The position numbers and the translations under genes are program-made. Positions 4,557-28,168 of a DNA stretch of 64,000 bases are shown here, one piece after another. How positions within the stretch are numbered: position 1 is the stretch's first letter; each line of letters opens with the position of its first letter. Origin of the DNA: a virus; the IMG/VR virus record IMGVR_UViG_3300027852_000039, positions 1-64,000 of that record; one strand, written 5' to 3'. Under the pieces are notes generated by a model. The model searched no databases, was not told where the DNA came from, and saw only the letters and a list, made by a program, of their open reading frames with translations.

Positions 4557-4568
4557 ACCCCTCTTTCC

Positions 4569-5060: not shown

Positions 5061-5079
5061 GCGGTCCCCGAAAAACAGA

Positions 5080-5107: not shown

Positions 5108-5201
5108 CGGAGGAGCTTCACGAAGACCGCGAAGCGGTGAAGAGGATTTCACCGTAACCCAAAACGAAGACACTGTCAACGGAAAAACGGAGGAGAAGAG
5201 C

Positions 5202-6137
5202 ATGACGAACGGCGAGCGTAGTGGAATGGATCCGGAAGACCCCGGATACGATGGAGAGTACATCGAGGATGAGGCGTCGGTAGATACGCAAATCATGAAG
5301 TACGATCCGCACCTTCTCGAAAAGCTGGAGGTCACGCATCTCGCGGCGAAGAAAGCGATCGAGATGATCGACGATCTTGTGAAGACATCTCTTCGCATGA
5401 CCAAGTCGCGCCATTGGTACGACTACGAAGGGAAACCCTACCTGAAGGAATCCGGAGTCATGATCGTCAAGCGCGGTCTTCCGGTCGAGATCGAACCGCT
5501 CGGGGAAGTGAAGTGGGAAACCTTTGACGACGATCGTGGACCGTACTATGTGGGATCCCGAGATTTCAAAGCGTCCTGGACGAACGGGATGTTCGGGTCG
5601 GTGACGGTCACGGGGACCGCGTCCTCGCGAGATGCTCTCGTCGGAAGGAAGGGAGGAGAGGACGTCCCCATTCAGGAGATTGACCGAACAAAGGTTATGA
5701 GGAAGCTTGACACGAACGGACGACGTCGAGCTTTGATGCGTCTTCTCGGAGTGGACGATATCTCGTGGAAGGAATTCGAAGAACTGACAGGGGTCAAGCG
5801 TGACGAACTGGAGAAAGTGTCGTACGCGGGAGCGGGAGCGGACAAGACTGAAGGATGGTCGGAGGAACAGAAAGACAAGGGCGAGAAAATGCGAGCGTGG
5901 ATTTTGGAGATGCACGGCAACAACGCTCAGACGGCGCAACAGTACCTCGAAGATCTCACGACCTGGACTCCTCGGGGAAAGAGCGAACCTGTCAAGGGAA
6001 AGAGGACAGTCAAGGCGCTCACGGGAAAACAGATCGACATTCACTTCAAGAAGGTCAAGAACGACTTCGATAGCTTCCAGCGCGGACAGGATCGCGGCGG
6101 GAAGGAGACGGGCGAGCGAAAGGATCTGTTCGACTAG
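5202..6137 (+). CDS. Probable single-strand annealing/recombination protein
   Basis: 311 aa; GKPYLKESG motif and K..TN..RRA..RLLG; located before a Cas4-like exonuclease; ends in KDLFD. Confidence 0.5.
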   Translation: MTNGERSGMDPEDPGYDGEYIEDEASVDTQIMKYDPHLLEKLEVTHLAAKKAIEMIDDLVKTSLRMTKSRHWYDYEGKPYLKESGVMIVKRGLPVEIEPLGEVKWETFDDDRGPYYVGSRDFKASWTNGMFGSVTVTGTASSRDALVGRKGGEDVPIQEIDRTKVMRKLDTNGRRRALMRLLGVDDISWKEFEELTGVKRDELEKVSYAGAGADKTEGWSEEQKDKGEKMRAWILEMHGNNAQTAQQYLEDLTTWTPRGKSEPVKGKRTVKALTGKQIDIHFKKVKNDFDSFQRGQDRGGKETGERKDLFD

Positions 6138-6149
6138 GAGGGGACGACG

Positions 6150-6284
6150 ATGGAGACACCGGAAAGTATCGCGCAATTTTTGATCGAAATCGCTGCGGAT
6201 ATCAAGAACGGGAAACCCATTCCTTCGGCGCTCGACGAACTAGAGGAAGCTCTCGTAGAGTGGAGAGAGGAGTTCGGTGAATGA
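6150..6284 (+). CDS. Hypothetical protein (44 aa)
   Basis: GGAGG RBS, ATGA overlap with the next gene. Confidence 0.55.
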   Translation: METPESIAQFLIEIAADIKNGKPIPSALDELEEALVEWREEFGE

Positions 6285-6802
6285 ATGAAGGCGAACACTT
6301 CTATATCGAGACGTTCGTGAATCCGGACGCGTGGGACTTTGCAGCGGAGGACGCCGATCTGTTTATGGACTTGCTCTTCAGGCTGCTCTTCGAAGAGTTT
6401 CAGAAGACCATGAAGAAGATGAGGTTCAAAGGAGACGTGTCGCTTCGATGCAAGGTCGACACGGTCCTTTTCCCTCCGCATTCGACGGAGACGACGATCG
6501 AACAGATCGAGGTCAAGGCGAAACCTTTTGTCCGGATCCGGATGTTCGTCAAGATGCTGAAGACCCACGATCGAGAGCGAGCGTGGAAGTACGGGATCCC
6601 GGAACCCTGGATCGAACGAAACACGCTCGCGGGGCAGGCGCGTATCCTCGCGGTTCGATGGGAAGAGCTTTGTACAGAGCTCTCGAAAACAAGAGAGGGT
6701 CGCTTCGTCCTTTGGATTGCGGAGATCCTCGGGAGGTTTTTGGAATGGACAAGGAGAGTTGTTCACCGTCGCCGGCCGATTCCACGGCGTTCTCGACGCT
6801 GA
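6281..6802 (+). CDS. Hypothetical protein
   Basis: ORF track; coupled to the upstream gene. Confidence 0.55.
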   Translation: MNEGEHFYIETFVNPDAWDFAAEDADLFMDLLFRLLFEEFQKTMKKMRFKGDVSLRCKVDTVLFPPHSTETTIEQIEVKAKPFVRIRMFVKMLKTHDRERAWKYGIPEPWIERNTLAGQARILAVRWEELCTELSKTREGRFVLWIAEILGRFLEWTRRVVHRRRPIPRRSRR

Positions 6803-6994
6803 CAGAGGAGATGATCCTCGACCTGTTCGAGATGGTTCCGAAGAACGGGGATCCTCCTCGTCTCTGGATTCGTTACGACGGAGATCTCTTCCCATTTGAA
6901 GAGGTCGTTCGGGGAGCGCTCCCTCAATTCTGGTTTTGATTTACTACTATCTGATTAGCTAATATGTTATTAGCTACGGAAGGCGGAGGAACTT

Positions 6995-7222
6995 ATGATC
7001 TACACGGACGGAGCGCACTATATGAGGATCAAGGGCAACAGAGGACCAGGAAGAGAGGTCTTCGCAATCTATCGAACCCCGGATCTGAAGAAGAAGGGAA
7101 CGGGGGTGAAGATCCGGACTGATTCATTTCAAGGTATTCGGCTAAACCAAGAGAGCGCGGAGACGGCGCTCGCGGAGTATGCGGTAAAGCGAGGATGGAA
7201 ACCTTTGAGCGAGGGGGGATGA
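6995..7222 (+). CDS. Hypothetical protein
   Basis: GGAGG RBS; AT-rich sigma70-like element upstream (TTGATT-18-TAATAT near 6936-6965). Confidence 0.6.
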   Translation: MIYTDGAHYMRIKGNRGPGREVFAIYRTPDLKKKGTGVKIRTDSFQGIRLNQESAETALAEYAVKRGWKPLSEGG

Positions 7223-7225
7223 ACA

Positions 7226-7597
7226 ATGGAGCTTATTGACAGGATGAGAGACAACCGGACGAGAAAGGGGGATGGACCGCGCGCGGAATGGAGATGTTCG
7301 GAGAGCGGATGTGCGGAGCGCGTGACTCATATTATTTTTCATCCGGACAACCCGCGTTACTGGAAAGTCTGTCTCGGGTGCGGGGAGCGACTTCAGAGCG
7401 CTCGGGATAAAGCGACTCCGAGGGGTTTGGTTTTGGAAGGAGTCGACAGCTACTATTATCGAAAGGACTGGAGGGTGTTCAAGCGAATCGCTCTTCGACA
7501 CCCTGAGTTCCTTTCCCCGAGGATGGTCGACAAGTGTCACGATGAGAACCGCAAGTCGGAGGAACGAAGAGATGAGCGACGAAGAGGTAACGGTTAA
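7226..7597 (+). CDS. Hypothetical zinc-finger protein
   Basis: CxxxxC and CxxC motifs. Confidence 0.55.
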   Translation: MELIDRMRDNRTRKGDGPRAEWRCSESGCAERVTHIIFHPDNPRYWKVCLGCGERLQSARDKATPRGLVLEGVDSYYYRKDWRVFKRIALRHPEFLSPRMVDKCHDENRKSEERRDERRRGNG

Positions 7598-8633
7598 AGC
7601 GGAGGAGGTCGAGGATCTCTCGAAACAGAAACCGACGAGGAGGATCATTCGTCCGAGCGAGCTTCCTCCGAGAACGGTCACGCTGAAGCGACCGGACATT
7701 ATCGGGAGACTCGTCGAATCCAAGGCGAAGAAACAGGAGCGTTATCCGGTCTACTCTAATTGGGCTTCTATGATGGGAAGCCCCTGTATCCGGGAACTGT
7801 TTCATCATAGAGTGAACTGGAAGTTCCGGGAGATGCCTGATCCCGAGAAACAGTTCCTCTTCGAAGGTGGAGCGTGGATCGAAGACAAGGCGTACAGGGA
7901 TCTTCAGGACGCGGGGTTCCGCATTGAGGCGCAAGGCGCACGCTTTGAGATCAAAGACCGTAAGGAGAACATCACGGGAAAGATCGACATGCGTCTGATA
8001 TGGGAACGTCTCACGATCCCCGTCGAGGTCAAGGGTCTTCAGATGTGGGACGCGGAGAAGCTCAACAGCGTTCACGACTTTTGGGAGTCCTCGAAACCCT
8101 GGATCAAGAAGTATCCGTGTCAATTGCTTTTGTACATGTTCGCGCATGGGTCCGAGTGGGGTTTCTTCTACGTCGTGAATAAGCTCACGATGTTTCCGAA
8201 CGTGATATGGGTCAACCTGTACGATCATCTCGATTACGTGACGGAACGTCTCGAAACGGCGATCCTCGTGAACAAGTGCATCAAGAACCCGAAGCTTCTC
8301 GACAAACAACCGAACAAGGGGTTCAACACGGACCCGGACTACTGTAAGAACTGCGATTACTTCGCGGTCTGCGGTCCTCCGGAAGCGTACGAAGGCGCAG
8401 CGATCGAAAACGATCCGGAGATCCTGAAGCTCCTGGACACGAGGGGAGCGAACGAGAAAGCTCATAGGGCGTTCGAGCAAGCGGACCGGATATTAAAACC
8501 AAAGATCAGGGAAAGGGAATTCCGCTGTGGAGACTGGATCGTGACCGGGAAGAAGGGGTCTCGTCCGAAGATGGTCGCTCACGAGACGGAACGAAACGTG
8601 ACATGGACAGCAAGGATTAAGAGGATTGAGTAA
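7572..8633 (+). CDS. Cas4-like PD-(D/E)XK exonuclease with a 4Fe-4S cluster
   Basis: N-terminal Cys (SPCIR), GKID..EVK, QLLLY, C-terminal CxxCxxxxxC (CKNCDYFAVC); no CRISPR array or other cas genes nearby. Confidence 0.8.
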   Translation: MSDEEVTVKAEEVEDLSKQKPTRRIIRPSELPPRTVTLKRPDIIGRLVESKAKKQERYPVYSNWASMMGSPCIRELFHHRVNWKFREMPDPEKQFLFEGGAWIEDKAYRDLQDAGFRIEAQGARFEIKDRKENITGKIDMRLIWERLTIPVEVKGLQMWDAEKLNSVHDFWESSKPWIKKYPCQLLLYMFAHGSEWGFFYVVNKLTMFPNVIWVNLYDHLDYVTERLETAILVNKCIKNPKLLDKQPNKGFNTDPDYCKNCDYFAVCGPPEAYEGAAIENDPEILKLLDTRGANEKAHRAFEQADRILKPKIREREFRCGDWIVTGKKGSRPKMVAHETERNVTWTARIKRIE

Positions 8634-8942: not shown

Positions 8943-10004
8943 ATGGGGGGGCTCCGAAAATGGTTCAAGGTTCCGGTAGAGCTTTTGATGTCAACGCGGT
9001 TTCAACGTCTGTCAGACGAATACGCGGGAAGGCTGTTCAGACTTCTCGGGTTCGTTTGGAGAGACTCTCCCGATCAATTTTCCATACCCTACGACACAGA
9101 GGATCTCTGCAACCTTCTTCGGGGGATCTCCGAGGAAGAGCTTGAGAGAACTCTGTCCAAGCTGGCGAACGGCGATGATCCGATCATTCTGGTCGAGAAC
9201 GATCGTCTCGTCGTCCCATTCCTTCAAGAACAAGCTGAAGACAACGAGAAGGCGGTCGAGCAACGACGGAACGCGGCGCGGTCCCGGTGGGGATCGAGCG
9301 CGTCCGACGATGCGGGAGACATGCGGTCCGCATCCGGGTCGCATACGGGTCGGAATGCGGGTCGCAATGCGGGAGGTGTGCGGTCCGGTATGCGGGGAGG
9401 CATACGGGGATCATGCGGTCCGCAGCAGAATAAAGATGAAAAGATAGAGAGAGAAAGAGAAAGAGAGGTTGAGATGTGTAATAAGGGGGAGATAGGGGGG
9501 AGTGTGAGGGGGGAAAGAGGGGGGGACAACGCTCCCGTCGCTGACGCTTCGGGGTCGTCAGAAAAAAACGCTGACGACACGCTTCCAGGGATCCCGCCTT
9601 CGCGCTCTCGGAAGAAGTTCCCGGATTGTCCTTGCGCGAAGATCATCGAGTCGTATCGGGAGAGACTCGTCCCTCCCCTGGAGGACGCGGTCGATGAGGC
9701 GGTCCTTCGCACTCAGATCCGGAATCGATGGAGGGACGAGAAGGATCGACAGTCGCTTGAATGGTGGGACGCATACTTCGACATCGTCTCCGGGTGTCCG
9801 TATCTCATAGGGAAGGTGAAGGACTGGAGAGCGACGCTCTTGTGGTTGACCGGGAAAAAGAACACGGCGAAGGTTCTCGCGGGTCAGTACGTCCCGAACG
9901 AACTGAAGGGTAAATTCACGACGAAGGGTCTGAAGAACATGAACGTCGCAGCGGACATCATTCGCAAGCTCAGAGAGCAAGAGGAAGGAGAGAAGACAGG
10001 ATGA
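8943..10004 (+). CDS. Phage replication initiator protein
   Basis: N-terminal winged-helix-like region (WFKVPVELL), RRNAARSRW, low-complexity linker, C-terminal WRATLLWL..KVLAGQY; followed by a DUF6475 gene. Confidence 0.7.
   Translation: MGGLRKWFKVPVELLMSTRFQRLSDEYAGRLFRLLGFVWRDSPDQFSIPYDTEDLCNLLRGISEEELERTLSKLANGDDPIILVENDRLVVPFLQEQAEDNEKAVEQRRNAARSRWGSSASDDAGDMRSASGSHTGRNAGRNAGGVRSGMRGGIRGSCGPQQNKDEKIEREREREVEMCNKGEIGGSVRGERGGDNAPVADASGSSEKNADDTLPGIPPSRSRKKFPDCPCAKIIESYRERLVPPLEDAVDEAVLRTQIRNRWRDEKDRQSLEWWDAYFDIVSGCPYLIGKVKDWRATLLWLTGKKNTAKVLAGQYVPNELKGKFTTKGLKNMNVAADIIRKLREQEEGEKTG
9310..9470. repeat. Iteron-like repeats (ATGCGG/ATACGG core, ~11-12 bp period) plus A/G-rich tract; candidate replication origin
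   Basis: Cores at ~9310, 9321, 9343, 9355, 9367, 9390, 9402 and 9413, followed by AAAGATGAAAAGATAGAGAGAGAAAGAG. Confidence 0.6.
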
Positions 10005-16885: not shown

Positions 16886-17285
16886 TCGAGAATACATCGA
16901 CATCGAGGTCGTCATGGACTGGAGCGATCCGGGTCCGGAGGGGATGTCTGTTCGTCCTGGAGCGCTGAAGGTCGACGAGTACATGAAGAACTCCGTCGTT
17001 CTTTCGAGCTTCGATGTGAGGACTCCTCCGGTCGGAAAGACGACGGAGATCGAGTTCGGTGAGGACGGGAAGTGTCGGATCAAGATGAAGATCGAACGCA
17101 CGTACGCGGAAGCGATCCTCGAAGGCGCGATGTTTGCGAACCCTGGATTCATCGCGAAGAAGTGGACCGAGAAGGACGACGGGACGAAGGAGTACGAAGA
17201 GGGCGATCTTCTCTCCATTGGACTCGTCGCGAAACCTCCCGCTGAGAGTCAAGACAATGGCGAAGATCCCGGATCTAAAGGCTAA
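16875..17285 (+). CDS. Hypothetical protein (weak resemblance to an HK97 prohead-protease fold)
   Basis: YMKNSVVL.SFD...PPVGK, ..LLSIGLVAKP. Confidence 0.45.
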   Translation: MESDREYIDIEVVMDWSDPGPEGMSVRPGALKVDEYMKNSVVLSSFDVRTPPVGKTTEIEFGEDGKCRIKMKIERTYAEAILEGAMFANPGFIAKKWTEKDDGTKEYEEGDLLSIGLVAKPPAESQDNGEDPGSKG

Positions 17286-17640
17286 GGTTGACGTGTCGTT
17301 GTCCGAACAGTTGAAGATTTTTGTTGAGATAATGAGGGCGTTCGGGATCTCGACAGTGGATGCGGCGAAGAACTTCGAAGAGTTCGGGAAAGCGATGAAG
17401 AAGATTCAGCCGAAGAACCCGGACGCGGTTGAGATGGATCTCCCCCCTTACGATGACGGTCTTTCGGATTTCTGCAAGAACACGGTCGCGATAGGAGAAC
17501 AGGGAAAACCGCAACAGGTCACGAGCTGGAAGGCCACGATCGGACCGACCGGAAGATTTCCCGCGACCTTCCCGATGGAAGCATCCAAAGGAAGCGACGG
17601 ATTGTACAACCCACAAACGGAAAAGAAGGAGGAGTCGAAG

Positions 17641-18882
17641 ATGAATGTTGAGTTTTCACGCGACGTACTCGAAGAAAAACTCTCATACGCGAGGGTCTTC
17701 ACAGAAGCAAAGGGATCGATGCAACGACTCGACGCGGTCCTCTGTGAAGCGAAGAAGCTGGAGGGAGGAAGAACCGTCCTTCAGATCACAACGACAAACC
17801 TTGAGACGTCCTATGTCGGTCTAGTCGACTGCGATGTGAAGGAGGAGGGGACGGTCTGTCTCAACGCTGCGAAGCTTCTCGATATTGTGAAGACGTTGAA
17901 CCGAGAAGCGGCGGCGTCTCTCACCGTGACGAAGAAGGATCCGGAGACGGTCCTCCTGAAGAGCGGTCGATCGAAGTTCAAGCTGAAACTGTTTCCTCCG
18001 GAGGAGTTCCCGAAGCTCTCGAAGGTCAAGTACACGGAGGGGATCCCGATCAACCCGTTCACGCTGTCGAGAGCAATCCGGAAAGCGAAGAAGGGAACGT
18101 CCAAACAGTTACAGACGGGTCGGGTCGGACTGGAGTCTCTTCTCTTCCGGTTCGAGGGAAAAGACTTGAAGAAGCTCTTTCTCGTGAATGTCGGGACGGA
18201 CGGTCATCGTTTGGCATACGTGAGGAACAAGATCCCTCTCGACGAATCTCAGATCGCTTCACAAGAGCTTCCTCCCTGGATCAAGGGAGCGGAGGACGGA
18301 AAAGCGCGAGAGTACGTTCTTCCGATCTCAGGACTCCTTCAGCTTGAGAGGGTCGTCACGGACTATCTGTCGTCACTGAAGGAGGGAGACGAGGAGATTC
18401 CGGTCGAGGTTGCTCCGGATGAAGAAACCCGAGCGATTGCGTTCGCGATCAACGACTCGATTCTTCATCTTCAATGTATCAACATGATGTATCCGGATTT
18501 CGAGGCGATCAGGAAGCACGAGTTCGGTGTGACGCTCCACGTGGATCTCCCGCAAATATCGGCGGCGCTGAAGCGGGTTGCGGTCCTCACAGATTCCAAG
18601 CATCGCGAGGTCACGCTGAAGGCGAGATCGACCGAGCTTGATATGAAACACGTCAGCGCGGAGATCGGAGAAGCTCAGGACACGGTCGCTTGTGAACTCA
18701 TGGGGGAACCGTGGGAACTGAACTTCAACGTTACGTATCTCCGAGAAGGCGTCCAGGGGATCGCGGAGGAGGAGGACGTCTTGATCGAGATCGCGGAGGG
18801 AGGAAAACCCGTCCGGATCCGGGGATCGAAAAATGCGTACGCGGACGAGTTCGAGTATATCTTGATGCCGCTCAGGATATAG
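17641..18882 (+). CDS. dnaN: DNA polymerase III beta sliding clamp
   Basis: TNLE, KLLDIVK.L, SGRSKFKL...PEEFP, GTDGHRLA, YPDF, FNVTYL, YILMPLR; strong AAGGAGG RBS; in-frame upstream extension from 17257. Confidence 0.92.
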   Translation: MNVEFSRDVLEEKLSYARVFTEAKGSMQRLDAVLCEAKKLEGGRTVLQITTTNLETSYVGLVDCDVKEEGTVCLNAAKLLDIVKTLNREAAASLTVTKKDPETVLLKSGRSKFKLKLFPPEEFPKLSKVKYTEGIPINPFTLSRAIRKAKKGTSKQLQTGRVGLESLLFRFEGKDLKKLFLVNVGTDGHRLAYVRNKIPLDESQIASQELPPWIKGAEDGKAREYVLPISGLLQLERVVTDYLSSLKEGDEEIPVEVAPDEETRAIAFAINDSILHLQCINMMYPDFEAIRKHEFGVTLHVDLPQISAALKRVAVLTDSKHREVTLKARSTELDMKHVSAEIGEAQDTVACELMGEPWELNFNVTYLREGVQGIAEEEDVLIEIAEGGKPVRIRGSKNAYADEFEYILMPLRI

Positions 18883-18900: not shown

Positions 18901-19335
18901 ATGTCTGAAGAGAAGAGGGAGAAGCGCTTCAAGGTCTGGAAGGTGTCCACGATCGCGGCGGGTCTGTTCTTTTGGGGGATCCTTATTCTGTGGGGATACT
19001 CGGTCATAAGAATGGCGATCGCGGTTACGCTCGAAGAAACGCTCTCTGAGAGGACGATCTTCTTTCTGTTGGGTCAAGGGTCTATCATCTCCTTGCTGGT
19101 CCTTTTTGTTGGGACTCCGTTCGCGTGGCGGCGCTTCAAGAAGTGGCGCGCGTGGAGAAGGCGAATCATCAAGGACGATCGCCCTCCCACGGTCCAGGAG
19201 ATTCATGAAGCGATGCTTGACGCGATCGAACGTCTGACGGGCCGGCGACCGAACACGACCGAGATCCAGTTCCCCGGAACACCTCCGGAGTTCCTTCCGA
19301 AGTTCAATCCAGGACCGCCATATGGGAGTGCATAA
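18901..19335 (+). CDS. Membrane protein with two TM helices
   Basis: Two hydrophobic segments. Confidence 0.65.
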   Translation: MSEEKREKRFKVWKVSTIAAGLFFWGILILWGYSVIRMAIAVTLEETLSERTIFFLLGQGSIISLLVLFVGTPFAWRRFKKWRAWRRRIIKDDRPPTVQEIHEAMLDAIERLTGRRPNTTEIQFPGTPPEFLPKFNPGPPYGSA

Positions 19336-19349
19336 AGGAGGACCAGGAA

Positions 19350-19646
19350 ATGAAGAAGCACGAATTGAAGACGGACCCGATCGTGTTCGCGGAGACGTGG
19401 TCGGGAAAGAAGAACTTCGAGGTCCGCGTGAACGATCGAGACTTCCAGGTCGGAGACGCTCTCGATCTTTGGGAGACGAGCTTTACGGGCGAGGAGATGA
19501 AGAAAGGGTCGTCTCTCATCTATACGGGGAGATACATCGAGGTCGAGGTCGAGTACATCCTTCACGGTCCGATCTATGGACTCGCGGAGGGATGGGTCAT
19601 CATGGCGACACGGTTCATCACGAGAGGAACGAAGGATCGCAAATAG
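19350..19646 (+). CDS. DUF3850/ASCH-PUA-like protein
   Basis: HELK....F....SGKKNFEVR.NDRDFQVGD.L.L.E, YTGR. Confidence 0.9.
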   Translation: MKKHELKTDPIVFAETWSGKKNFEVRVNDRDFQVGDALDLWETSFTGEEMKKGSSLIYTGRYIEVEVEYILHGPIYGLAEGWVIMATRFITRGTKDRK

Positions 19647-19657
19647 GAGGATTGATC

Positions 19658-19921
19658 ATGGATCCTGAAACCTTCTGGACGAAGTTTCTTCCGGGAGTTC
19701 TTACAGTCCTCTTCCTGATTTGGGTTCTGTGGTACGTGGGGATCGACTTGCTAAGATGTTACCTTCGACGGCGACGGTTGATCTGTCCGAAGTGTAAGCA
19801 TCGAGGAAGCGATGGAGGAGGGAACCCCTATTGCGAAGCGCTCGACAGGAAGCTGTACGAGTACGTCGAGCGATGTTGTAGCTTCGAACGGGGACGAGGG
19901 AGGTACGGTCGGATATGCTAG
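19658..19921 (+). CDS. Membrane protein with Cys cluster
   Basis: TM helix then CPKC..C..CC. Confidence 0.55.
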   Translation: MDPETFWTKFLPGVLTVLFLIWVLWYVGIDLLRCYLRRRRLICPKCKHRGSDGGGNPYCEALDRKLYEYVERCCSFERGRGRYGRIC

Positions 19922-19959
19922 GACTGATCCGTGAAATGGAGAGGAGGAGGGAGCGAGAG

Positions 19960-21000
19960 ATGTTGATCGAAGAGAAGCAATGGACGCCGTTCTTCCCCTG
20001 GAAGGCGCTTCTGTACCCGAGAGAATGCGAGGGGATCGTCAAGGGAGACTTCCTCCCTCCTGTCGTGTTGCATATCTACGTGACGAACAAGTGTAACTCT
20101 AATTGTGCGTGGTGCATCATGCGCGAGGAGCGCGCTCTCGGAGGGGAACTCGACAGAGATGTTTTTAGAGACATCGTCGAGCAAGCGATCAAGCTCGGAG
20201 TGAAAGCGATCCATATCAGCGGAGGAGGGGAGCCGCTTCTTTACAAACATCTCCATATCCTCGACAGATTTCCGGGGAAGAAGATCCTCTCGACGAACGG
20301 GATCGCGATCCGGGACACATACAGCGCGCGAGATCTTTGGAAGCTCTTCGATCGCATCCGGATCTCGATCGACGCGGGATCGTCCGGAGTATACGACGAT
20401 GTCAGAGGGGGAGAGCTAACGTTCTGCAAAGTACTCGACAACTGTCGCGCGTTGTCTGAGGACGACGGGAGGGACGGGACAAAGACGCTCGGACTCGGGT
20501 TCGTCCTGGATCATAATAACTGGAAGGACACGTTCGACTTCTGTCAGATTCCGAAGGTCAGAGATTTTGATGCGGACTTCCTTCACATTCGACCCGCATA
20601 TTACCCGAGAGGATCGGAAGAGGATCGGATGGTCCGCGAGATTATCCGTCCCGCGTATCATCTCTGTGAAGCGGCAAGGGGAGCAACGAACGTTCCGATC
20701 TTTGCTATCTCGGACAAGTTCCGGGGATACTGGACCCCGAGGTCGACCGTGTATTGTTACGCAACCCCGCTTCACGCGGTCGTGACGGCGACCGCTGAGT
20801 TCATCGTCTGTCAAGACGTCTTCATCCGGTTTGGAGACTTGAAGAGACAGCGGTTCGGGGAGATATGGGGGGGACACGAACACAAGGAAGCGATCGCGAG
20901 AATCGGGACCGATAAGTGTCCGCGATGCGTAATGAACAACGCGAACGAAATTATCGAAAAAGTATTTGTCGAGGATCAAATCATGAAGGAGCTACTATGA
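19960..21000 (+). CDS. Radical SAM/SPASM-twitch domain protein
   Basis: CNSNCAWC, SGGGEPLL, STNG, RISIDAG, C-terminal C..C..C. Confidence 0.9.
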   Translation: MLIEEKQWTPFFPWKALLYPRECEGIVKGDFLPPVVLHIYVTNKCNSNCAWCIMREERALGGELDRDVFRDIVEQAIKLGVKAIHISGGGEPLLYKHLHILDRFPGKKILSTNGIAIRDTYSARDLWKLFDRIRISIDAGSSGVYDDVRGGELTFCKVLDNCRALSEDDGRDGTKTLGLGFVLDHNNWKDTFDFCQIPKVRDFDADFLHIRPAYYPRGSEEDRMVREIIRPAYHLCEAARGATNVPIFAISDKFRGYWTPRSTVYCYATPLHAVVTATAEFIVCQDVFIRFGDLKRQRFGEIWGGHEHKEAIARIGTDKCPRCVMNNANEIIEKVFVEDQIMKELL

Positions 21001-21770
21001 CCGATCAGAAGAAAGTTCTCGTAACGGGAAGCGAAGGGTTCGTCGGGAAGTACGTATGCGAGGGACTGAGGAGCGCGGGGATCGACGTCGTTCGGTTTGA
21101 CTTGGCTTTAGGGAACGACGTCTTCGACCCGAAGCATCTATCGACGGCGCTGTGGGAGAAGGGGATCGACGCGGTTGTTCATCTTGTCGCGCATCCGCAT
21201 CGACATAGCGTCTATACGAAATGGGGCAAGTCGAAGGACAGCGTTGACAAACGAGAGGAGTTCCTTGAATTCGTGCGGTTGAACTCCGAAGGAGCGAAGC
21301 TCGTATACGACGAATGTGATCGAGCACGGACGCGTCGGCTCGTTTACTGTTCTTCTGGAGCGGTCTATGGATTCGAGGATGGATTCGGGACTCCGGTCGG
21401 ACGGATCAAGACGACCGACGTTCCGGATCTTGCGGACGACCGACTTCACTCGTATCCGCGATCGAAGCTTCTCGCGGAGCAATATCTCGGTCTCGCGACG
21501 GAAGCGTTGTCGGCGATCGACAACAAGGTTCCCGAGGTCGTGATCCTTCGCTTGAACTGGATCCAGCATCCGACACTCGGAGACGGAAAGAGCGGACCGG
21601 AATGGAAGGGCGCGACGTGTTCAATCCCGAGGATGGTTCAGGGGTTCGTGAACGCCGTCGATGCGGACGTCTCGGGTTACGTGAATCCGATCGTCATGGA
21701 TCTGATCGAGAAAAACGACGCATGGGAGGGATCGCTTCTTGCGAGCGAGATCCTGTTCGGAGGGGAATGA
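20997..21770 (+). CDS. NAD-dependent epimerase/dehydratase (extended SDR)
   Basis: VLVTGSEGFVG, SSGAVYG, YxxxK (YPRSK). Confidence 0.88.
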   Translation: MTDQKKVLVTGSEGFVGKYVCEGLRSAGIDVVRFDLALGNDVFDPKHLSTALWEKGIDAVVHLVAHPHRHSVYTKWGKSKDSVDKREEFLEFVRLNSEGAKLVYDECDRARTRRLVYCSSGAVYGFEDGFGTPVGRIKTTDVPDLADDRLHSYPRSKLLAEQYLGLATEALSAIDNKVPEVVILRLNWIQHPTLGDGKSGPEWKGATCSIPRMVQGFVNAVDADVSGYVNPIVMDLIEKNDAWEGSLLASEILFGGE

Positions 21771-22036
21771 AAATGAGAGTGATTATATGTTTATGGGAGG
21801 ATCTTCCAGATGATGTTCCCGACGAGCCTGGAGGGTTTGACGAGTGGTCGTTTGGACGAGGAGGGGACGGACTTCCTGACGGGACATGGCATCTTCACAA
21901 GGTCGTGGAAGAGGAGGGAAGGATTGTCGATTATATTTACCCGTTTCCCCCGTGCGTTCAGTACGTCATCAAACAAATAAAGGAAGGGGAGAGAGAAAAG
22001 GTAAAGAGCGAAATACGTCGAGCGCTTGGACTTTGA
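21767..22036 (+). CDS. Hypothetical protein
   Basis: ATGA-coupled ORF. Confidence 0.55.
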   Translation: MKMRVIICLWEDLPDDVPDEPGGFDEWSFGRGGDGLPDGTWHLHKVVEEEGRIVDYIYPFPPCVQYVIKQIKEGEREKVKSEIRRALGL

Positions 22037-22051
22037 CGGAGGGGATTAAAC

Positions 22052-22267
22052 ATGGACACAAGGACCGGACACATTTACTCGCCGGAAGAGGTCGCGGAAC
22101 TCAAGAAGAAGGGACTGGATACTTCTCACTTGAAACAGATGGAGCTTCCCCCTACGGACAAACAGATGAAGCGACGTCCCCCGAAGGTTGGACGGAATGA
22201 ACTTTGTCCGTGCGGGAGCGGGAAGAAGTTCAAGAAATGCTGTCTCGATCTACAGAGGAGACCGTAA
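22052..22267 (+). CDS. SEC-C motif protein
   Basis: [20 protein letters not shown]. Confidence 0.9.
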
Positions 22268-22268
22268 G

Positions 22269-22430
22269 ATGAGCAAGAACTGTATTCAATGTGTGAAGAA
22301 TGAAAGGACTGGACCGGATCTCCTTTGCGATAAGTGTCGGGAGCGAGAGAGCATTCCTGGAAGAAACGAAGAGCATGCGGCTCTCGTAAAGGCGACAGCA
22401 GCCAAGAGAGGATTTCGGATAGACGGTTGA
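22269..22430 (+). CDS. Small zinc-finger protein, paralog of 23686-23970
   Basis: MSKNCIQCVKN..GPDLLCDKCRE. Confidence 0.6.
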   Translation: MSKNCIQCVKNERTGPDLLCDKCRERESIPGRNEEHAALVKATAAKRGFRIDG

Positions 22431-22757
22431 AGAGAATAATCAAAATTGTAACTACAGAGTTGGCCGAGATGCCCTATCGCGAAAGAAGGAAGGTGTTCAA
22501 CCGCATGTTGGCGGTGAAGGGCTGGCACTATTCAGAATCTGGTCCTCGACTGCGCCCCTTGCTCCCACTGTAACAAGTTCCATGCAGCCCCAAGAAACGA
22601 GGGGTGAAAAAATCCGAAGTGGATAAATCCGAATCAGAGGTATGGTCCTTGCCCCTACAGTGCGGAGGAGCAAGCGGAACACAAAAAGGACTGCGGAATC
22701 TTTCGCAGTTCAGCCTGTACTTGTGGGCAGCATGAGCAAGAGACATGTTGCCACGCC

Positions 22758-22826
22758 TGGCATCACCCGGATGGCCTGATGGTCAAGATCAAGAAGAAGG
22801 ACTTCGGTTTGAAGCGGAATGCGTAG
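22758..22826 (+). pseudogene. Remnant C-terminus of an RNA-ligase-like (DUF5565-type) gene
   Basis: WHHPDGLMVKIKKKDFG* with no upstream catalytic domain and no start for that frame. Confidence 0.45.
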
Positions 22827-22862
22827 TGTATCGGTATTATGTTCGATTCGGGAGGGGGAATA

Positions 22863-23081
22863 ATGTCAGATCCAGACAGGAAAGCAATGAGAGAATACCG
22901 CCGAAAGTACTTTGCCGTCAGGATCGAGGAGGGCCGCTACTTCTTGGATGAGGGGGAGGTGCTGGTATCCATCACGTCGAACGGGAAACAGTGGCAGAGT
23001 TTAGGGCTCTACCTGGACGACGAAGTGCCCCAGGTGATTGCAGCCCTACAGAGGACACAGATACCACAGAAAGTACAGTGA
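22863..23081 (+). CDS. Hypothetical island protein
   Basis: GGAGG RBS. Confidence 0.6.
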   Translation: MSDPDRKAMREYRRKYFAVRIEEGRYFLDEGEVLVSITSNGKQWQSLGLYLDDEVPQVIAALQRTQIPQKVQ

Positions 23082-23107
23082 CAAATATACAGGATGCGGA
23101 GGACGAG

Positions 23108-23314
23108 ATGGGATATTTCAGAGAGCTGCACGGAATTCGTAGCCCCGAGTTCTTCGAGGGCGTAGTGGCAGGCATGACAGCCTATGCTGTTTGGCGTGAC
23201 GGAACGCAGTGGGTGGGAGATCCGGCGAAATCCCTCAAGGTTGCTATCGAAGAGGCAAGGCGGGATCTGCTCGAGCACGATGACCAAAATACATGTCACC
23301 GGGAGGAGCCATGA
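23108..23314 (+). CDS. Hypothetical island protein
   Basis: GGAGG RBS; AYAVWRDGTQWVG. Confidence 0.65.
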   Translation: MGYFRELHGIRSPEFFEGVVAGMTAYAVWRDGTQWVGDPAKSLKVAIEEARRDLLEHDDQNTCHREEP

Positions 23315-23514
23315 GAAACCGCAAGGGCTGGAAAGAGTACCCACTCAGGCGGTGCCGATGGCTGAATGGGTGTTGCGTCTGCGGTAAAGACATCGTATCC
23401 GGCGAGCTCTACTACGATGGAGGGTACAGTAGGCGGGCGCACAAACTGTGTGTAGATATTATGGCAAAGTATAGCAACCCAGACACACGTGGAGGAACTG
23501 ATGAGCGATCTTAG
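23311..23514 (+). CDS. Hypothetical island zinc-binding protein
   Basis: C..C...I..GE.YY......H..C. Confidence 0.65.
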   Translation: MRNRKGWKEYPLRRCRWLNGCCVCGKDIVSGELYYDGGYSRRAHKLCVDIMAKYSNPDTRGGTDERS

Positions 23515-23689
23515 ATCCCCGCTGGCAAAGGCCAGAGATGCCTTCCTTGAAAGAGATGAGGGCAAGAAGCTCCTGGAGGGCTCTGCGAGCGGCCAATACC
23601 TGAAGAACAGAATCGAGGCCGCATGGTTGGCTGGCGTGAGGTATGGCATGGTGCTGCATGACCCAGATACATGTGGAGGTAACGAATGA
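23501..23689 (+). CDS. Hypothetical island protein
   Basis: GGAGG RBS; YLKNRIEAAW.AG. Confidence 0.65.
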   Translation: MSDLRSPLAKARDAFLERDEGKKLLEGSASGQYLKNRIEAAWLAGVRYGMVLHDPDTCGGNE

Positions 23690-23970
23690 GCACTAATTGT
23701 ATTCAATGCGTGAAAAACAAAAGGAGGGGACCAGACCTGCTCTGTGATGCTTGCCGGGAGAAGCAAATGCAAGCATCCGGCAGCGAGGCCAACTACTCTA
23801 TGGAAGAGCCGGAATTTTTAAGGTATGTGAAATTACTCTCGTCGATGTGCCTCGACTACCAGATGGACGGTATCAGCCGGGAAACGTTCATATCAAATCT
23901 GGACATCATATCGAGACAGATTGGGGAGCAATATGACCACAAGACGTGTTCGCAAGGAGACGAGGAATGA
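23686..23970 (+). CDS. Hypothetical island zinc-finger protein
   Basis: MSTNCIQCVKN..GPDLLCDACRE. Confidence 0.65.
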   Translation: MSTNCIQCVKNKRRGPDLLCDACREKQMQASGSEANYSMEEPEFLRYVKLLSSMCLDYQMDGISRETFISNLDIISRQIGEQYDHKTCSQGDEE

Positions 23971-24155
23971 GGCGGCTACTTGAGAAAAACCTGCCAATCT
24001 ATATTCGCTTCTGGCCTACGCAGTTTTGGCTGGCAGTGTGGTCGGCTCCGTCCCGGCAGGGGGGAGAAACAGACTGGAAGGCCCTCCGAATCACCATAAG
24101 GAGAGGCCGTCACCATTCTTTGCTCGTTGCGGTCATAAAGGCCGGAACAATATGA
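23967..24155 (+). CDS. Hypothetical island protein
   Basis: ATGA overlap. Confidence 0.5.
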   Translation: MRRLLEKNLPIYIRFWPTQFWLAVWSAPSRQGGETDWKALRITIRRGRHHSLLVAVIKAGTI

Positions 24156-24185
24156 CCCAGACTCACTTGACCCTACGGAGGGGTG

Positions 24186-24443
24186 ATGCAGTTATCAAGA
24201 GAAGTCCCCAAGCACACAAAGACGGAACACTTCAACTGGTGCAAGAAGGGTTGGCTCAAAATGACCCCGAGATTCCGGGAGCTTCGGTCGATATGTAGCA
24301 ACAAGATGGACACATGCTTCTGGTGCCGTCACAAATTCAAAGATGGCGAAGAAATGGCGCTGGCGCAACCCAAGAAGAGAAGAAATAAGGTTCTCTGTGA
24401 TGGGTGTGCCGACGCTCTTTTGCGTAGTGATACGGAGTCATAA
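24186..24443 (+). CDS. Hypothetical island zinc-finger protein
   Basis: CFWC...F..GE, LCDGC. Confidence 0.6.
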   Translation: MQLSREVPKHTKTEHFNWCKKGWLKMTPRFRELRSICSNKMDTCFWCRHKFKDGEEMALAQPKKRRNKVLCDGCADALLRSDTES

Positions 24444-24802
24444 TGTCTTCTGAAACGATCTACCGCATTCAAGATAACGAAGGCCGAGGGCCGTTCAGGC
24501 CGGGCTTTTCCAGGCGATGGGTGGAGCCCCGACCGGATCATGAAAACCTGATGCCCTGGACGATGGAGTTTGGCCGAGTGGACAGGGCTCTCCTCTTCGG
24601 CGAAATGGCTGGTAGTGGGTGTCGGACCCTGGAGCAGCTACGTCGCTGGTTCACTCAGTCCGAGTACGAGACGCTCGTGAAATACGGATACAGGGCGGTG
24701 AAGATGGGAATAGGCCGCGTCCTGGCCGAGCCAGAAAAGCAATGTATGTTCGGTCGGGCCGAGCCGTTGAGAGAGGACGTGGAAGAAGTACAACTGTACT
24801 AG
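24443..24802 (+). CDS. Hypothetical island protein
   Basis: IYRIQD.EGRGPF, GC..LEQL.RWF. Confidence 0.65.
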   Translation: MSSETIYRIQDNEGRGPFRPGFSRRWVEPRPDHENLMPWTMEFGRVDRALLFGEMAGSGCRTLEQLRRWFTQSEYETLVKYGYRAVKMGIGRVLAEPEKQCMFGRAEPLREDVEEVQLY

Positions 24803-24839
24803 GCGACATGACTCACAATCTTGATGCTCGGAGGAAACA

Positions 24840-25739
24840 ATGAAGATCGGAATCATGTACTCGGGAATCGGACAGAGAAACGGAGCGGACTTCGTTGCGG
24901 AGTTCATGATAAACGCAGTCAAACTTCTCGGACACGAGTGCGTTGTGTTGGGATCGCACGGAGGTCCGCAAGCGACGGAGATCCCGGACGGACTTGACTT
25001 CATCGTCCATTCATCCGGGAGGGAACTGAAACTCGGGCTCGTGTACAAGCTCAAGAAGAAGACGAAGGTCGTCCTCTGGACCCATAACGACGAGATGGAA
25101 GACTGGAGACAGATCATCGCTCCGATCTCTCCTGTGGTTGACATTCATTTCTCGTATACGAAAGGACATCCGTATGGAGATCACGTCCGATACTTACCGC
25201 TCGCAGCGGACGAAACGATCTATCATCCGATCGACGCATGGGAAGCGTTCTATGAATACGATGTCGCTCTGATCGGAGCGCGGCGCTCCTGGAGAGAGAA
25301 GTTCGCGGAGGGAATTCAAAAGAGCTTCCCGAAAGCGTTCTTTCATTTCGAGATGGCGCTCACGCACGAGGAAGTGAACCGCATATACAACTCGACAAGA
25401 GTTGTTCTCGCTCCCGTCCAGGATTGCGACGAGGACTCTCCCGCTCGCGCGTGGGGTTGTCCCTGTAGAACCTTCGATGTCCCCGCGTCCGGAGCTTTTC
25501 AGATCCAGGTCGCGCGGGGAGGACTGTACGACGTTTATCCTGAAGCAATCGTGATCGACCCGATCGAGGACGTCGACGTCGCGGTCGATGCGTGGTCGGA
25601 AGTGATCGACTACTACATCACGCACGAGGAAGTCCGGTTGTACAAAGCGACTGAGTTGTGGGTCCGGACCCGCGCGCAACATAAGTACACTCACAGAATT
25701 CAAACCATGATCGACGCGATCGAGGAGCTTGCGGGATGA
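24840..25739 (+). CDS. Glycosyltransferase, CgeB/Glyco_trans_1_2 (GT-B) type
   Basis: YLPLAADETIYHP, YDVALIG, IYNS, RTFDVPASGAFQ, HKYTHRI. Confidence 0.85.
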   Translation: MKIGIMYSGIGQRNGADFVAEFMINAVKLLGHECVVLGSHGGPQATEIPDGLDFIVHSSGRELKLGLVYKLKKKTKVVLWTHNDEMEDWRQIIAPISPVVDIHFSYTKGHPYGDHVRYLPLAADETIYHPIDAWEAFYEYDVALIGARRSWREKFAEGIQKSFPKAFFHFEMALTHEEVNRIYNSTRVVLAPVQDCDEDSPARAWGCPCRTFDVPASGAFQIQVARGGLYDVYPEAIVIDPIEDVDVAVDAWSEVIDYYITHEEVRLYKATELWVRTRAQHKYTHRIQTMIDAIEELAG

Positions 25740-26473
25740 TAACAACGGATACGATCTACACGATGAAGCATGAAGAGCTTGATCGATGGATTATCGAGAA
25801 CGTCATGGAATGGAGAGCGCTCCCCTTCGACGCGCTTCAGGGACTCTTCGACCCGGAGGTATACATCGAGTTCCCCGCGTGCGTGTTCAATCCGAGGACT
25901 GAGGTCTATGAGATGTTTCCGCATTCGAAGGCGAGACATCCGATCCCCTTCTCGCCGTCGACGTTTCCGGAATCAGCGACGGCGGCACTCGACAAGATCT
26001 CCGATCGAGACGGATGGACCTACTCGATTCTTCGCGGATCCGCGAGCGAGCGACAGGCGATCCTCCGCGCGCTGAAGTGGAAGCTCGCGACGGAGGACGA
26101 GGAGAGAGACGGAGAGGGGATCTTCGTGGTTCTCGCGAGGAAAGGTCTTTGCGTCCTTGGACACGGTCCCCTCCTTCCACTTGCAGCGGCGCGCGCGGTC
26201 TGTCAGACCTTCGGGAAACCGGACGAGAGAGGTTTCGTCACGTCGAAGGAGATCCTCGAACAGACGGGAGTCAAGAGCGTTCAGACCCTCATGAACTGGA
26301 CGAAGCTCGGGATCCTTCCGTCTCCAAGAGTGACCGCTCAGAAGAACGGGCGCGGGTCGATCGCATGGTTCCCGTACTTCGCGCTCGACCGCGTGTCGAT
26401 GATCCTGGACCTAAAGAGGCAAGGGTACGGGATCCGGAGGATCAAGAAGATCCTGGACGTCGTCGGGCGCTGA
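25736..26473 (+). CDS. Protein with C-terminal MerR-like HTH
   Basis: EILEQTGV.S..TL.NW...GILP.P.......G....F; LK.QGY.I..IK. Confidence 0.7.
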   Translation: MITTDTIYTMKHEELDRWIIENVMEWRALPFDALQGLFDPEVYIEFPACVFNPRTEVYEMFPHSKARHPIPFSPSTFPESATAALDKISDRDGWTYSILRGSASERQAILRALKWKLATEDEERDGEGIFVVLARKGLCVLGHGPLLPLAAARAVCQTFGKPDERGFVTSKEILEQTGVKSVQTLMNWTKLGILPSPRVTAQKNGRGSIAWFPYFALDRVSMILDLKRQGYGIRRIKKILDVVGR

Positions 26474-26783
26474 TCTCGACGTTCTATCTCGTGCGAGATT
26501 TGTTCTACGAAGCACAGAACGATCGTTATATTCCTGGATTTCTGAGCGCGGCGAATTGGGCCGGTTAAACGCCGAAAAACGTGAATGCTGAAAAATCAAA
26601 GGCATAGCAAAAAGTCTCATTTTGAGAAAAATCTCTAAGCAGGAATCGCTCCTGTCTGAACGGGGTTAATTGTAAAAGTTTTGTAAAAAGACGGATATCA
26701 ACGATCCGCGATATCCGGTCGAACAAAGTCTCATAGAATCAACCGTTCGGATTGGGCCTATTCCTGACCCCCCCCTATGCGTA

Positions 26784-26941
26784 GAGCGTCACTTTCCCGT
26801 CCCCAAAAAAGAAGCCCATCCATCGAGGCATAGCTCGATCGGTGACGCTCGCCGTCACTCGGTTGACGCTCGTGGTCACTTCCCCGAGATCTCTGCGGGG
26901 GTCTATTCTCGCAAGTCCCCGGCGATGGGCCGCTTTTTTTT
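26784..26941. repeat. Nested inverted repeats / structured non-coding element
   Basis: GAGCGTCAC (26784) vs GTGACGCTC (26842); AAAAAAGAAGCCCATC vs GATGGGCCGCTTTTTTTT; tandem palindromes GTGAC-N7-GTCAC and TTGAC-N7-GTCAC. Confidence 0.6.
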
Positions 26942-26951
26942 CGGCGCGCTC

Positions 26952-26967
26952 TGGCACGGTTCCTGCT
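26952..26967 (+). promoter_or_regulatory. Sigma54 (-24/-12) promoter
   Basis: TGGCACGGTTCCTGCT vs consensus TGGCACG-N4-TTGCW (one mismatch), ~95 bp upstream of the gene at 27063. Confidence 0.65.
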
Positions 26968-27062
26968 CTATTTCTCGGGTAATGAATACATCTCTTAACT
27001 TTTGTTCGACAGGCATATACCACAGACCGCGCGGGAACGCGCAAGACGAAAAGGAGAACATC

Positions 27063-27362
27063 ATGAAGACGTTGACCGAGGGGACGAGGATCTTCAATCG
27101 CGGCGACATGGCGAACATCGAACACTTCGGAACGATTATCAAGGTCAAGACGGATCGATGGGGAACGCATTACAGGATCAGGATCGACGAGGAAGACAGA
27201 ACGACAGAGAGAGAAGAGTACGAAGTTCCGAAGTGCATGGTTCACGAAGTCGACAAGGGTCACGGGGGAACGAGGATCGTGACCGAGGAAGCGTACAACA
27301 GGTTGGGAGAGGAAAGGATCAGGGAGTTCAAGGAACGATACGGAAAGAAGGAGGTCGCGTAA
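27063..27362 (+). CDS. Hypothetical early protein
   Basis: AAGGAG RBS; GTRIFNRGDMAN. Confidence 0.7.
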   Translation: MKTLTEGTRIFNRGDMANIEHFGTIIKVKTDRWGTHYRIRIDEEDRTTEREEYEVPKCMVHEVDKGHGGTRIVTEEAYNRLGEERIREFKERYGKKEVA

Positions 27363-27547
27363 TGCGTTGTCCGAATTGCCCGAACATGGTCGACACGGTT
27401 GTCGTCGAGGAGAGAGAGGGGACCAGGGGAGCGATGATCGAGTGTCCCCTCTGCAAAGTCCGCGCTCGGGAATTTACGTGGGCGAACGCGAGCGCAAGGT
27501 ACGAAGAAGAATACGGACCGGACGAAGACGAACCTGTCAACGTGTAA
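27362..27547 (+). CDS. Zinc-ribbon protein
   Basis: CPNC...CPLC. Confidence 0.6.
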   Translation: MRCPNCPNMVDTVVVEEREGTRGAMIECPLCKVRAREFTWANASARYEEEYGPDEDEPVNV

Positions 27548-27631
27548 CCCGAAAGAAGTAAAGCGCAGCAAACCACAAACAGGAGAGCGGGGCGTCGACG
27601 GAGGAACCCGCTCTCCCCTGGAGGATGGAAC

Positions 27632-27808
27632 ATGACGATGCAAGCGAGAGAAAGAATCGAAGAGAGACTCGACGCGATCGAGAGAGAGATCGAAGAAGAG
27701 AAGAACGAAGTCCGCAAGGTTCTTCTTCGGCGCGAGCATAGGATTCTCTCGGGTTGGGATCACGTCGAGCAACAGTGTAAGAGAGACGGAATAGTCGAGG
27801 TATGGTGA
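27632..27808 (+). CDS. Hypothetical protein
   Basis: GGAGG RBS; preceded by hairpin GGAGAGCGGG..CCCGCTCTCC. Confidence 0.5.
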   Translation: MTMQARERIEERLDAIEREIEEEKNEVRKVLLRREHRILSGWDHVEQQCKRDGIVEVW

Positions 27809-27847
27809 ACGATCCTTGTCGGAGGGGATTGCTCACATCATAGAAGG

Positions 27848-28168
27848 ATGGAAGGAAGGACAATGAAGAGCGACACAAAAGACGAGATCATGGAACTAGT
27901 CAAGGAAGCGGAAGCGATGATGCTGGACGACACGTCAAGGTATTTCCTGAGCGGGTTGAGAAAGAAGCTAAAGGATCCGAACCTGAGAGCGGCGAACGCG
28001 TTCTCATGGAGCGAGGATCCGGAGAAGACGATCTTCGACGGGATCACCGGGATCCCGATCGAGAATTACGAAGGTCTGGTCCTCGTGTTCTTCAGCGACG
28101 GGTCGTGTTTCATGAGGACTTGGATCGAGAACCGCGAACGGAATTGGAGAGCGCTCGGAACCGACTAG
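27848..28168 (+). CDS. Hypothetical protein
   Basis: ORF track. Confidence 0.55.
   Translation: MEGRTMKSDTKDEIMELVKEAEAMMLDDTSRYFLSGLRKKLKDPNLRAANAFSWSEDPEKTIFDGITGIPIENYEGLVLVFFSDGSCFMRTWIENRERNWRALGTD

Follow-up and report, generated by a model that had tools for sequence, protein, structure and literature searches.

A strand-specific, start-associated 17-nt repeat in a hypervariable small-gene array of an uncultured tailed phage

The present study analyzes a degenerate 17-nt motif that recurs in an array of small genes within a window of 64,000 nt, the first 64 kb of the linear 75,760-bp IMG/VR virus record IMGVR_UViG_3300027852_000039, which is part of an uncultured tailed phage. The motif is a strand-specific leader or junction element placed 5′ of the Shine-Dalgarno sequence (SD) of seven genes in a hypervariable accessory slot, where it is probably cis-regulatory and possibly a recombination substrate in addition. 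The explanation we favor, at a probability of roughly 0.45, is that of a lineage-private, cis-acting leader element that would be read by one factor, would co-regulate the array, and would have spread by copying of junctions. CheckV estimates the 75.8-kb record to be 58% complete, and searches of the record reported below are to be read on that scale.

Clustering of the motif far exceeds chance and is limited to 2.1 kb of the 75.8-kb record. ATGACCCAGAyACATGT occurs on the coding strand between 22732 and 24824 in six strong and two weaker copies (accepted copies start at 22732, 23078, 23280, 23474, 23658, 23933, 24152, and 24808), all eight on the plus strand and in the same orientation, with successive copies 346, 202, 194, 184, 275, 219, and 656 nt apart and identities of 65–88% over the 17 nt. 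A repeat finder with no prior knowledge of the motif retrieved the family by itself (families D2, D4, and D15). At three or fewer mismatches the consensus has 4 matches in the window against 0.06 expected. At five or fewer mismatches the whole record gives 12 plus-strand matches, compared with 6.5 expected per strand; six of these fall within 1.4 kb, five of the six ending 10–17 nt before a called start, while the remaining six plus-strand matches and seven minus-strand matches are at chance level and 61–575 nt from a start. When a leave-one-out position weight matrix (PWM) was scored on both strands of the record, about 151,000 positions, the copies at 23280 and 23658 ranked at the top, those at 22732 and 24152 were each outscored by one position, and better-scoring positions numbered 5 for 23933, 15 for 23078, 20 for 23474, and 58 for 24808. 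A second PWM, built from the six core copies only and scored over 75,744 plus-strand positions, ranked the untrained sites 23078 and 24808 14th and 36th, and the distance of both sites to a start codon equals that of the core copies. Chance resemblance is excluded by the mismatch counts and PWM ranks. The whole-record PWM scan, which an initial annotation of the window had proposed, together with the mismatch scans, revealed no above-chance occurrence outside the cluster, matches beyond the array being at background level. Eight of the copies listed in that annotation were upheld, but two were dropped as noise, namely 23052, for which 262 positions scored better in the leave-one-out PWM, and one near 24427, where the best site upstream of the start at 24443 scores −2.6. 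Positions 4, 10, and 13 of the motif are invariant in all eight copies and positions 7, 9, 11, and 15 vary freely. Alignment of the junctions showed weak further conservation (rRGyA) 3–7 nt upstream of the 17-mer, so the element is approximately 24 nt long, and in its extended form, rRGyAnn-ATGACCmArAyACAyGT, it covers about 17–24 nt. A genome-wide search for further start-associated words returned only the SD. Separately, 14 of the 17 plus-strand positions at 42894-42910, within a gene at 42590-43006, are complementary to those of the motif consensus, a quality of match expected by chance about 0.06 times in the whole window, and this could be a coincidence or an antisense partner.

Seven of the eight copies are followed by GGAG(G) 0–8 nt downstream and by a start codon 10–17 nt downstream of the motif end, as had been described initially for most copies, with 22732 as the exception. 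The starts served in this way are those of the array genes P4, P5, P6, P7, P8, and P9 and of a glycosyltransferase-like gene. Copy 1 (22732..22748; ATGAGCAAGAGACATGT) is an orphan with no SD or start directly after it and lies 114 nt before the start of P3. Copy 2 (23078..23094; GTGACAAATATACAGGA), a weaker one, contributes its TGA as the stop of P3 and is separated from the P4 start by 13 nt containing a GGAGG. Copy 3 (23280..23296; ATGACCAAAATACATGT), copy 4 (23474..23490; GCAACCCAGACACACGT), and copy 5 (23658..23674; ATGACCCAGATACATGT), the last with the consensus sequence, are read in the P4 tail HDDQNTC, the P5 tail SNPDTR, and the P6 tail HDPDTC, respectively, and the gaps from their ends to the following starts of P5, P6, and P7 measure 14, 10, and 11 nt; GGAGG directly abuts the motif in copies 4 and 5. 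Copy 6 (23933..23949; ATGACCACAAGACGTGT), in the P7 tail YDHKTC, and copy 7 (24152..24168; ATGACCCAGACTCACTT), whose TGA is the P8 stop, each end 17 nt before the next start, that of P8 and P9 respectively. The weak copy 8 (24808..24824; ATGACTCACAATCTTGA) is intergenic; it follows the P10 stop by 5 nt and precedes the start of the glycosyltransferase-like gene by 15 nt, at the right edge of the array. The statement that the motif occurs at nearly every gene junction was too strong, as no copy is present at the junctions leading to the starts 22052, 22269, 22863, and 24443. The orphan copy lies in a 433-nt plus-strand stretch (22431..22862) that has no confident gene or family match and that also holds a junction-like remnant at 22648-22672 resembling the spacer after copy 7 (24166-24185; family D5); the stretch possibly consists of decayed units. 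A terminator-like hairpin with a T-run is present on the minus strand of the same stretch at 22690-22709.

Judging from frames and homologues, the motif acts at the nucleic-acid level and not as part of the neighboring proteins. Upstream open reading frames (ORFs) read it in two frames and one copy is intergenic, which agrees with the initial description of different frames: four copies are read as (H/Y/S)(D/N)xxT(C/R), two as a TGA stop, and one not at all. From P4 to P7 the upstream ORF traverses the motif in a single frame, its stop falling at the following start or a little beyond it. Conservation is at the nucleotide level, because the variable positions (7, 9, 11, and 15) are not third-codon positions. 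P0156, the sole outside homologue of P4, ends ...ARRDLLGEVVK where P4 runs on ...ARRDLLEHDDQNTCHREEP, the homology between the two ending 7 nt before the 17-mer. The core of the P6 family stops near residues 45–53, a few codons before the motif-coded tail, and a [DN]xxT[CR] tail was found in 0 of 150 P6-family representatives, while the only outside relative of P7 is similar in its N-terminal zinc ribbon alone. The outside homologues thus lack motif-coded tails, and the element is accordingly part of the downstream gene's leader. Frames, absence of codon periodicity, and tail-less homologues all speak for the DNA or RNA element, as opposed to a peptide, that had been proposed at the outset. 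Mini-ORFs beginning at the ATG of the motif were considered and rejected; they would encode 11 to 48 aa, an SD precedes only one of them, one frame has no start, and another merges with P4.

Comparison with related contigs shows that the array is an insertion. The radical-SAM gene is followed directly by the glycosyltransferase-like gene in L006/L010, L007, L009, L012/L013, L014/L019, L015/L016, and L040, an adjacency common to at least six related lineages. The closest relative is L008, with 69% aa identity in the flanking glycosyltransferase-like gene; its order is epimerase-like gene, 212-aa gene, 35-aa gene, and glycosyltransferase, and homology with the window resumes exactly at the glycosyltransferase ATG. 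Window positions 21770-24840 are therefore a lineage-specific filling of a hypervariable slot. Base composition is flat, with a GC content of 0.52 at 22–24 kb and 0.54 overall and with GC skew and AT skew positive throughout, and therefore the island is not compositionally foreign; the earlier term “foreign island” holds for its lineage-specific insertion but not for its composition.

The motif itself is private to this phage among the sequences searched. It was absent from all relatives found that have the flanking genes, and 0 of 20 IMG/VR viral loci encoding P6 homologues carry it, so it does not travel with the P6 gene as a cassette site. A scan of IMG/VR for the motif plus GGAGG gave 0 matches, and a scan for a degenerate 17-mer gave 20 single matches, a chance level, none followed by GGAGG and none accompanied by further strong copies, with a pattern of low sensitivity that matches only two of the phage's own eight copies. 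Neither the DNA of the region nor, by tblastn, P6 had a match among GenBank phages, and P0002 had no match in IMG/VR. Of the sequencing runs, one DNA run, probably the source, contains the region, and no RNA run is listed for it. Among the assembled contigs of the source run (contigs, not reads), one spans the region, and no variants, alternative junctions, or circles were present there. Two other contigs have repeats of their own. In L008, positions 4378-7671, AAGGAACGGAGGA with 0–2 mismatches occurs 7–9 nt before seven consecutive start codons; TAAACAACTAG stands ahead of several copies, and a GC-rich hairpin (GGGAGCGCGAAGCTCCCC at 4359 and a related one at 5408) ahead of at least two. In L045, positions 192-982, a contig that is otherwise unrelated and encodes a P6 homologue, four 100%-identical copies of GGGAAAGGAGTAGAGCG, 193–326 nt apart, stand directly before the starts of four consecutive small genes. 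AAGGAACGGAGGA was not found in the window, and neither AAGGAACGGAGGA nor GGGAAAGGAGTAGAGCG is enriched at starts there. L008 and L045 each having private repeats, lineage-specific junction repeats therefore look recurrent in small-gene arrays. A different kind of repetition was seen at L015, positions 1-3500, on a 103-kb related contig, where a long ORF region contains dozens of degenerate GGN repeats of 9-nt periodicity (collagen-like Gly-X-Y).

Searches for structure, promoters, and enzymes gave the following picture. The junctions share no RNA structure and their folds are not more stable than shuffles, with z-scores of −2.2 to +1.2; a conserved RNA hairpin or SD sequestration was rejected on these scores and the lack of a common structure. 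The repeat finder showed no inverted repeats at the junctions, Rfam gave no match at E≤1, and there was no tRNA. Neither a sigma-70-type promoter nor an intrinsic terminator was found on the plus strand from 19000 to 28000. PF00589 (for which positive controls matched), PF00239, RecT, ERF, YqaJ, and HNH were absent from the record, extending to its whole length the earlier observation that the window has no recombinase, and sigma-70 region 2 likewise had no match. PF00940, representing T7-like RNA polymerase (RNAP), had no match in the record and none in any control genome either. Restriction-site avoidance was tried with ACRYGT and CATG and rejected, there being no depletion. Outside the array, three 23-nt direct repeats (ATGCGGGAGACATGCGGTCCGCA-like), spaced 57 and 35 nt apart, occur at 9310-9424 inside a gene at 8943-10004; these could be iteron-like sites or a peptide repeat.

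The motif is real and statistically solid, and on present evidence it belongs with the known start-associated or junction repeats of phages and is not integron-like. The SAS (start-associated sequences) and ESAS (extended start-associated sequences) of Cluster K mycobacteriophages are short conserved repeats at the starts of many non-structural genes, nearly all in one orientation, and their function was still open in 2025; the ESAS is 17 bp long, lies immediately upstream of the SAS, which contains the ribosome-binding site, and support for an mRNA hairpin is scant (PMC3203893, PMC12699233). Our motif is similar in its single orientation (8/8 on the plus strand), in its position before starts (7/8), and in its length of 17 bp, like the ESAS. 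It differs in that the SAS (GGGATAGGAGCCC), to which its sequence is unrelated, includes the ribosome-binding site, whereas the motif is 5′ of the SD and ends 10–17 nt before the start; in that the ESAS is made up of two 17-bp imperfect inverted repeats separated by a 4–13 bp spacer, as opposed to a single asymmetric unit; and in that SAS and ESAS cover half a genome and are conserved across a phage cluster, whereas the motif is confined to 2.1 kb and absent from relatives and from the 20 P6-homologue loci. The promoter-early stem-loops (PeSLs) of T4-type phages are regulatory repeats that also mediate shuffling, recombination between copies having been shown by mini-circles (Arbiol et al. 2010, PMC2839356; PMC4122927). 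PeSLs flank small, non-essential ORFan genes in hyperplastic regions, in which insertions, deletions, and replacements distinguish relatives and the indels are bounded by the repeats. These regions are comparable to the present array, which is absent or replaced in relatives, but a PeSL consists of a sigma-70-like promoter and a terminator stem-loop, neither of which was found at the motif junctions, and recombination between copies was demonstrated for PeSLs, whereas the motif junctions are known from assembled sequence.

Integrons are similar in having one small gene per unit and a repeated site at unit boundaries. In contrast to attC, the motif has no imperfect inverted repeats (R''/L''...L'/R'), no folded bottom-strand hairpin, and no GTT core, and it lies in the 5′ leader of the next gene and is not a 3′ recombination site; an IntI-type tyrosine recombinase (PF00589) is missing from the 58%-complete record. 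Unlike CRISPR (clustered regularly interspaced short palindromic repeats) arrays, whose near-identical repeats have a regular short spacing, the copies are only 65–88% identical, lie 184–656 nt apart, and have a protein-coding gene in each interval. The initial annotation had already set the motif apart from attC and CRISPR repeats, a judgment with which the lack of inverted repeats and hairpins and the degree of identity agree, and the absence of hairpin, inverted repeats, promoter, terminator, and recombinase rules out membership in the attC/integron, PeSL, ESAS, and CRISPR classes. Stoperators of Cluster A mycobacteriophages such as L5, reportedly described by Brown et al. in 1997, are short asymmetric sites for one DNA-binding protein, dispersed genome-wide and bound by the immunity repressor. 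The motif resembles them in being asymmetric, in one orientation relative to transcription, and at gene junctions, but its sites are confined to 2.1 kb and no repressor was identified.

The anatomy of the junctions is fitted best by a start-associated regulatory sequence, the second option of the initial annotation. Under the favored explanation, one putative sequence-specific factor, possibly phage-encoded, would recognize the element, in the form of DNA or as the 5′ portion of each translation-initiation region, and would turn the array's small genes on or off in concert, the element serving as an operator beside each ribosome-binding site. With the element situated in the leader of the downstream gene, upstream ORFs would enter it in whatever frame they arrive, and would either end at its TGA or gain a short foreign tail. 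An independent origin of eight same-orientation copies by point mutation is implausible, suggesting spread by recombination or copying between junctions, and the element therefore probably supplied short homology for assembling unrelated small genes, as in PeSLs. Several observations weigh against this explanation. No binding factor for the motif was identified; the junctions have no conserved RNA structure, seven of eight fold z-scores lying between −1.3 and +1.2, and no sigma-70-type promoter or terminator on the plus strand; and about 110 other phage genes have an SD but not the element, which translation as such therefore does not require. It is also an elaborate assumption that a single young array of 2 kb would have a regulator of its own, and copy 1 (22732), with no gene directly downstream, is not predicted by a purely start-associated role.

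Alternatively, although we consider it unlikely, the motif could be a recombination boundary only, that is, a crossover site for insertion, loss, or exchange of single-gene units with no role in expression, operating through PeSL-like homologous exchange or an unrecognized site-specific enzyme. This would account for the observation that eight copies flank seven units (n+1) with a leftmost copy that is not start-associated, that the units hold unrelated genes of widely distributed small-protein families, that similarity to outside relatives is lost immediately ahead of the motif, and that slot contents differ even from the closest relative, and PeSLs offer a precedent (PMC2839356). A recombinational history is favored by three features: the n+1 arrangement, a leftmost copy that is an orphan, and homology that breaks at the motif. 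Arguing against a dedicated cassette system, on the other hand, are the lack of any integrase, resolvase, RecT, ERF, YqaJ, or HNH in the 58%-complete record, the unstructured site, which has no inverted repeat or hairpin, the degeneracy of the copies, which at 65–88% identity over 17 nt would be a poor substrate for homologous exchange, and the absence of the motif beside P6 homologues at 20 other viral loci. Nor were alternative junctions or circles present in the source run (contigs only), and a boundary model does not call for a constant location directly 5′ of the SD. No positive evidence emerged for the gene-cassette acquisition or shuffling system that had been suggested initially.

It is somewhat less probable again that the motif is a short phage-specific promoter, with a phage-encoded or phage-modified RNAP recognizing an asymmetric element of about 23 nt and initiating transcription in its 3′ part, such that every small gene would be given a short leader of its own with an SD. 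This explanation agrees with the length, the asymmetry, the single orientation, and the variable 0–8 nt distance to the SD. Dense promoters precede small early genes in T7, T4, and SPO1, and the class II promoters of T7 are situated in the ends of upstream genes, comparable to the placement of the motif. However, no T7-like RNAP or sigma-70 region 2 was detected, in an incomplete record and with an RNAP search that had no positive control; no copy precedes any of about 90 other non-structural genes; the copies are far more degenerate than known promoters of single-subunit RNAPs; and where GGAGG abuts the motif the transcription start would fall inside it.

Improbable as well, and slightly more so, is a functionless relic, in which local duplication or template switching copied one junction sequence (motif and SD) time after time during the addition of genes, and this sequence is now drifting. 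Consistent with this are the graded decay of the copies, from perfect consensus to barely detectable, the junction-like remnant and orphan copy within the gene-free stretch, and the local duplication evident from P2 and P7. Apart from P2 and P7, however, the units are dissimilar beyond the junction, and positions 4, 10, and 13 have remained invariant in 8/8 copies while their neighbors vary freely, which looks like selection rather than uniform decay. We would give still lower odds to a minimal phage gene-capture system that would recognize the motif or cross over at it and in which small genes would be inserted singly just 5′ of a resident ribosome-binding site with one additional site per event, by an enzyme outside the known recombinase families or one encoded in the missing ~40% of the genome; eight sites for seven units, the orphan leftmost site, and the upstream homology breaks are compatible with it. 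Finally, a C-terminal peptide motif D-x-x-T-C selected at the protein level, to which the four consecutive genes reading the motif in the same frame might point, or else a chance resemblance, is very improbable, the former being effectively refuted by the three further copies in the other frame or intergenic, variable positions that are not wobble positions, and P4 and P6 homologues without the tail, and the latter ruled out by the mismatch and PWM statistics.

The genes of the array are small and mostly unnamed, and a gene call from codon usage plus SD placed 119 of 120 genes on the plus strand. A SEC-C-motif protein (22052-22267, plus strand) and P2 (22269-22430, plus strand) are array genes with no motif copy upstream. 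They are followed on the plus strand by P3 (22863..23081), a 72-aa ORFan; P4 (23108..23314; 68 aa), 75% identical to its homologue P0156; P5 (23311..23514), a Cys-rich small protein of 67 aa, counted with P2, P7, and P9 among the zinc-ribbon proteins of the array; P6 (23501..23689; 62 aa), of a widespread unnamed small-protein family; P7 (23686..23970; 94 aa), which has an N-terminal CxxC...CxxC zinc ribbon paralogous to that of P2; P8 (23967..24155), a 62-aa ORFan; P9 (24186..24443), a zinc-ribbon-like small protein of 85 aa; and P10 (24443..24802; 119 aa), which has a weak match to phrog_1106, lacks an upstream motif, and makes one unit with P9. Look-alikes of P7 and P9 in the atlas fall in unnamed clusters only, mostly viral. 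The P6 family comprises 449 cluster representatives at E≤1e-3, proteins of about 55–130 aa with no Pfam or PHROG match, a core of DLRSPLAKARD...GQYLxNRIExAFLAG, and highly variable C-termini, some fused to zinc ribbons. That P6 and P7 might be a split fused protein was rejected, given that a C-terminal zinc ribbon occurs in only 8 of 152 family members and that P7 is dissimilar to these. P2 (22269-22343) and P7 (23686-23760) have in common a CxxC-x11-CxxC zinc ribbon that is 76% identical over 75 nt (family D1), with unrelated C-termini beyond it, and this paralogy indicates that local duplication or domain shuffling occurred inside the array. The backbone on the left has a radical-SAM gene (19915-21000, plus strand) and an NAD-dependent epimerase-like gene (20997-21770, plus strand) and that on the right the glycosyltransferase-like gene (24840..25739, plus strand); the three are a conserved module that may belong to a nucleotide-sugar or DNA-modification pathway. 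Further genes of the window include a DNA-polymerase-related one (17257-18882), one for a MerR-like protein (25736-26473), and a portal gene (49577-51655), along with a head protease/major-head region at 51660-53183.

Host-takeover and anti-defense genes of phages reside in hypervariable small-gene arrays, and little is understood of the way these are assembled and jointly regulated. Start-associated repeats have been known since 2011. The present motif adds a compact and clean example of such a repeat in an unrelated, uncultured phage, one that is separable from the SD, distinct from the neighboring proteins, and private to one lineage. The private repeats that differ among relatives, as in L008 and L045, suggest a general and fast-evolving “junction adaptor” principle. 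If the element proves to be regulatory, it would provide a handle for finding the factor that binds it.

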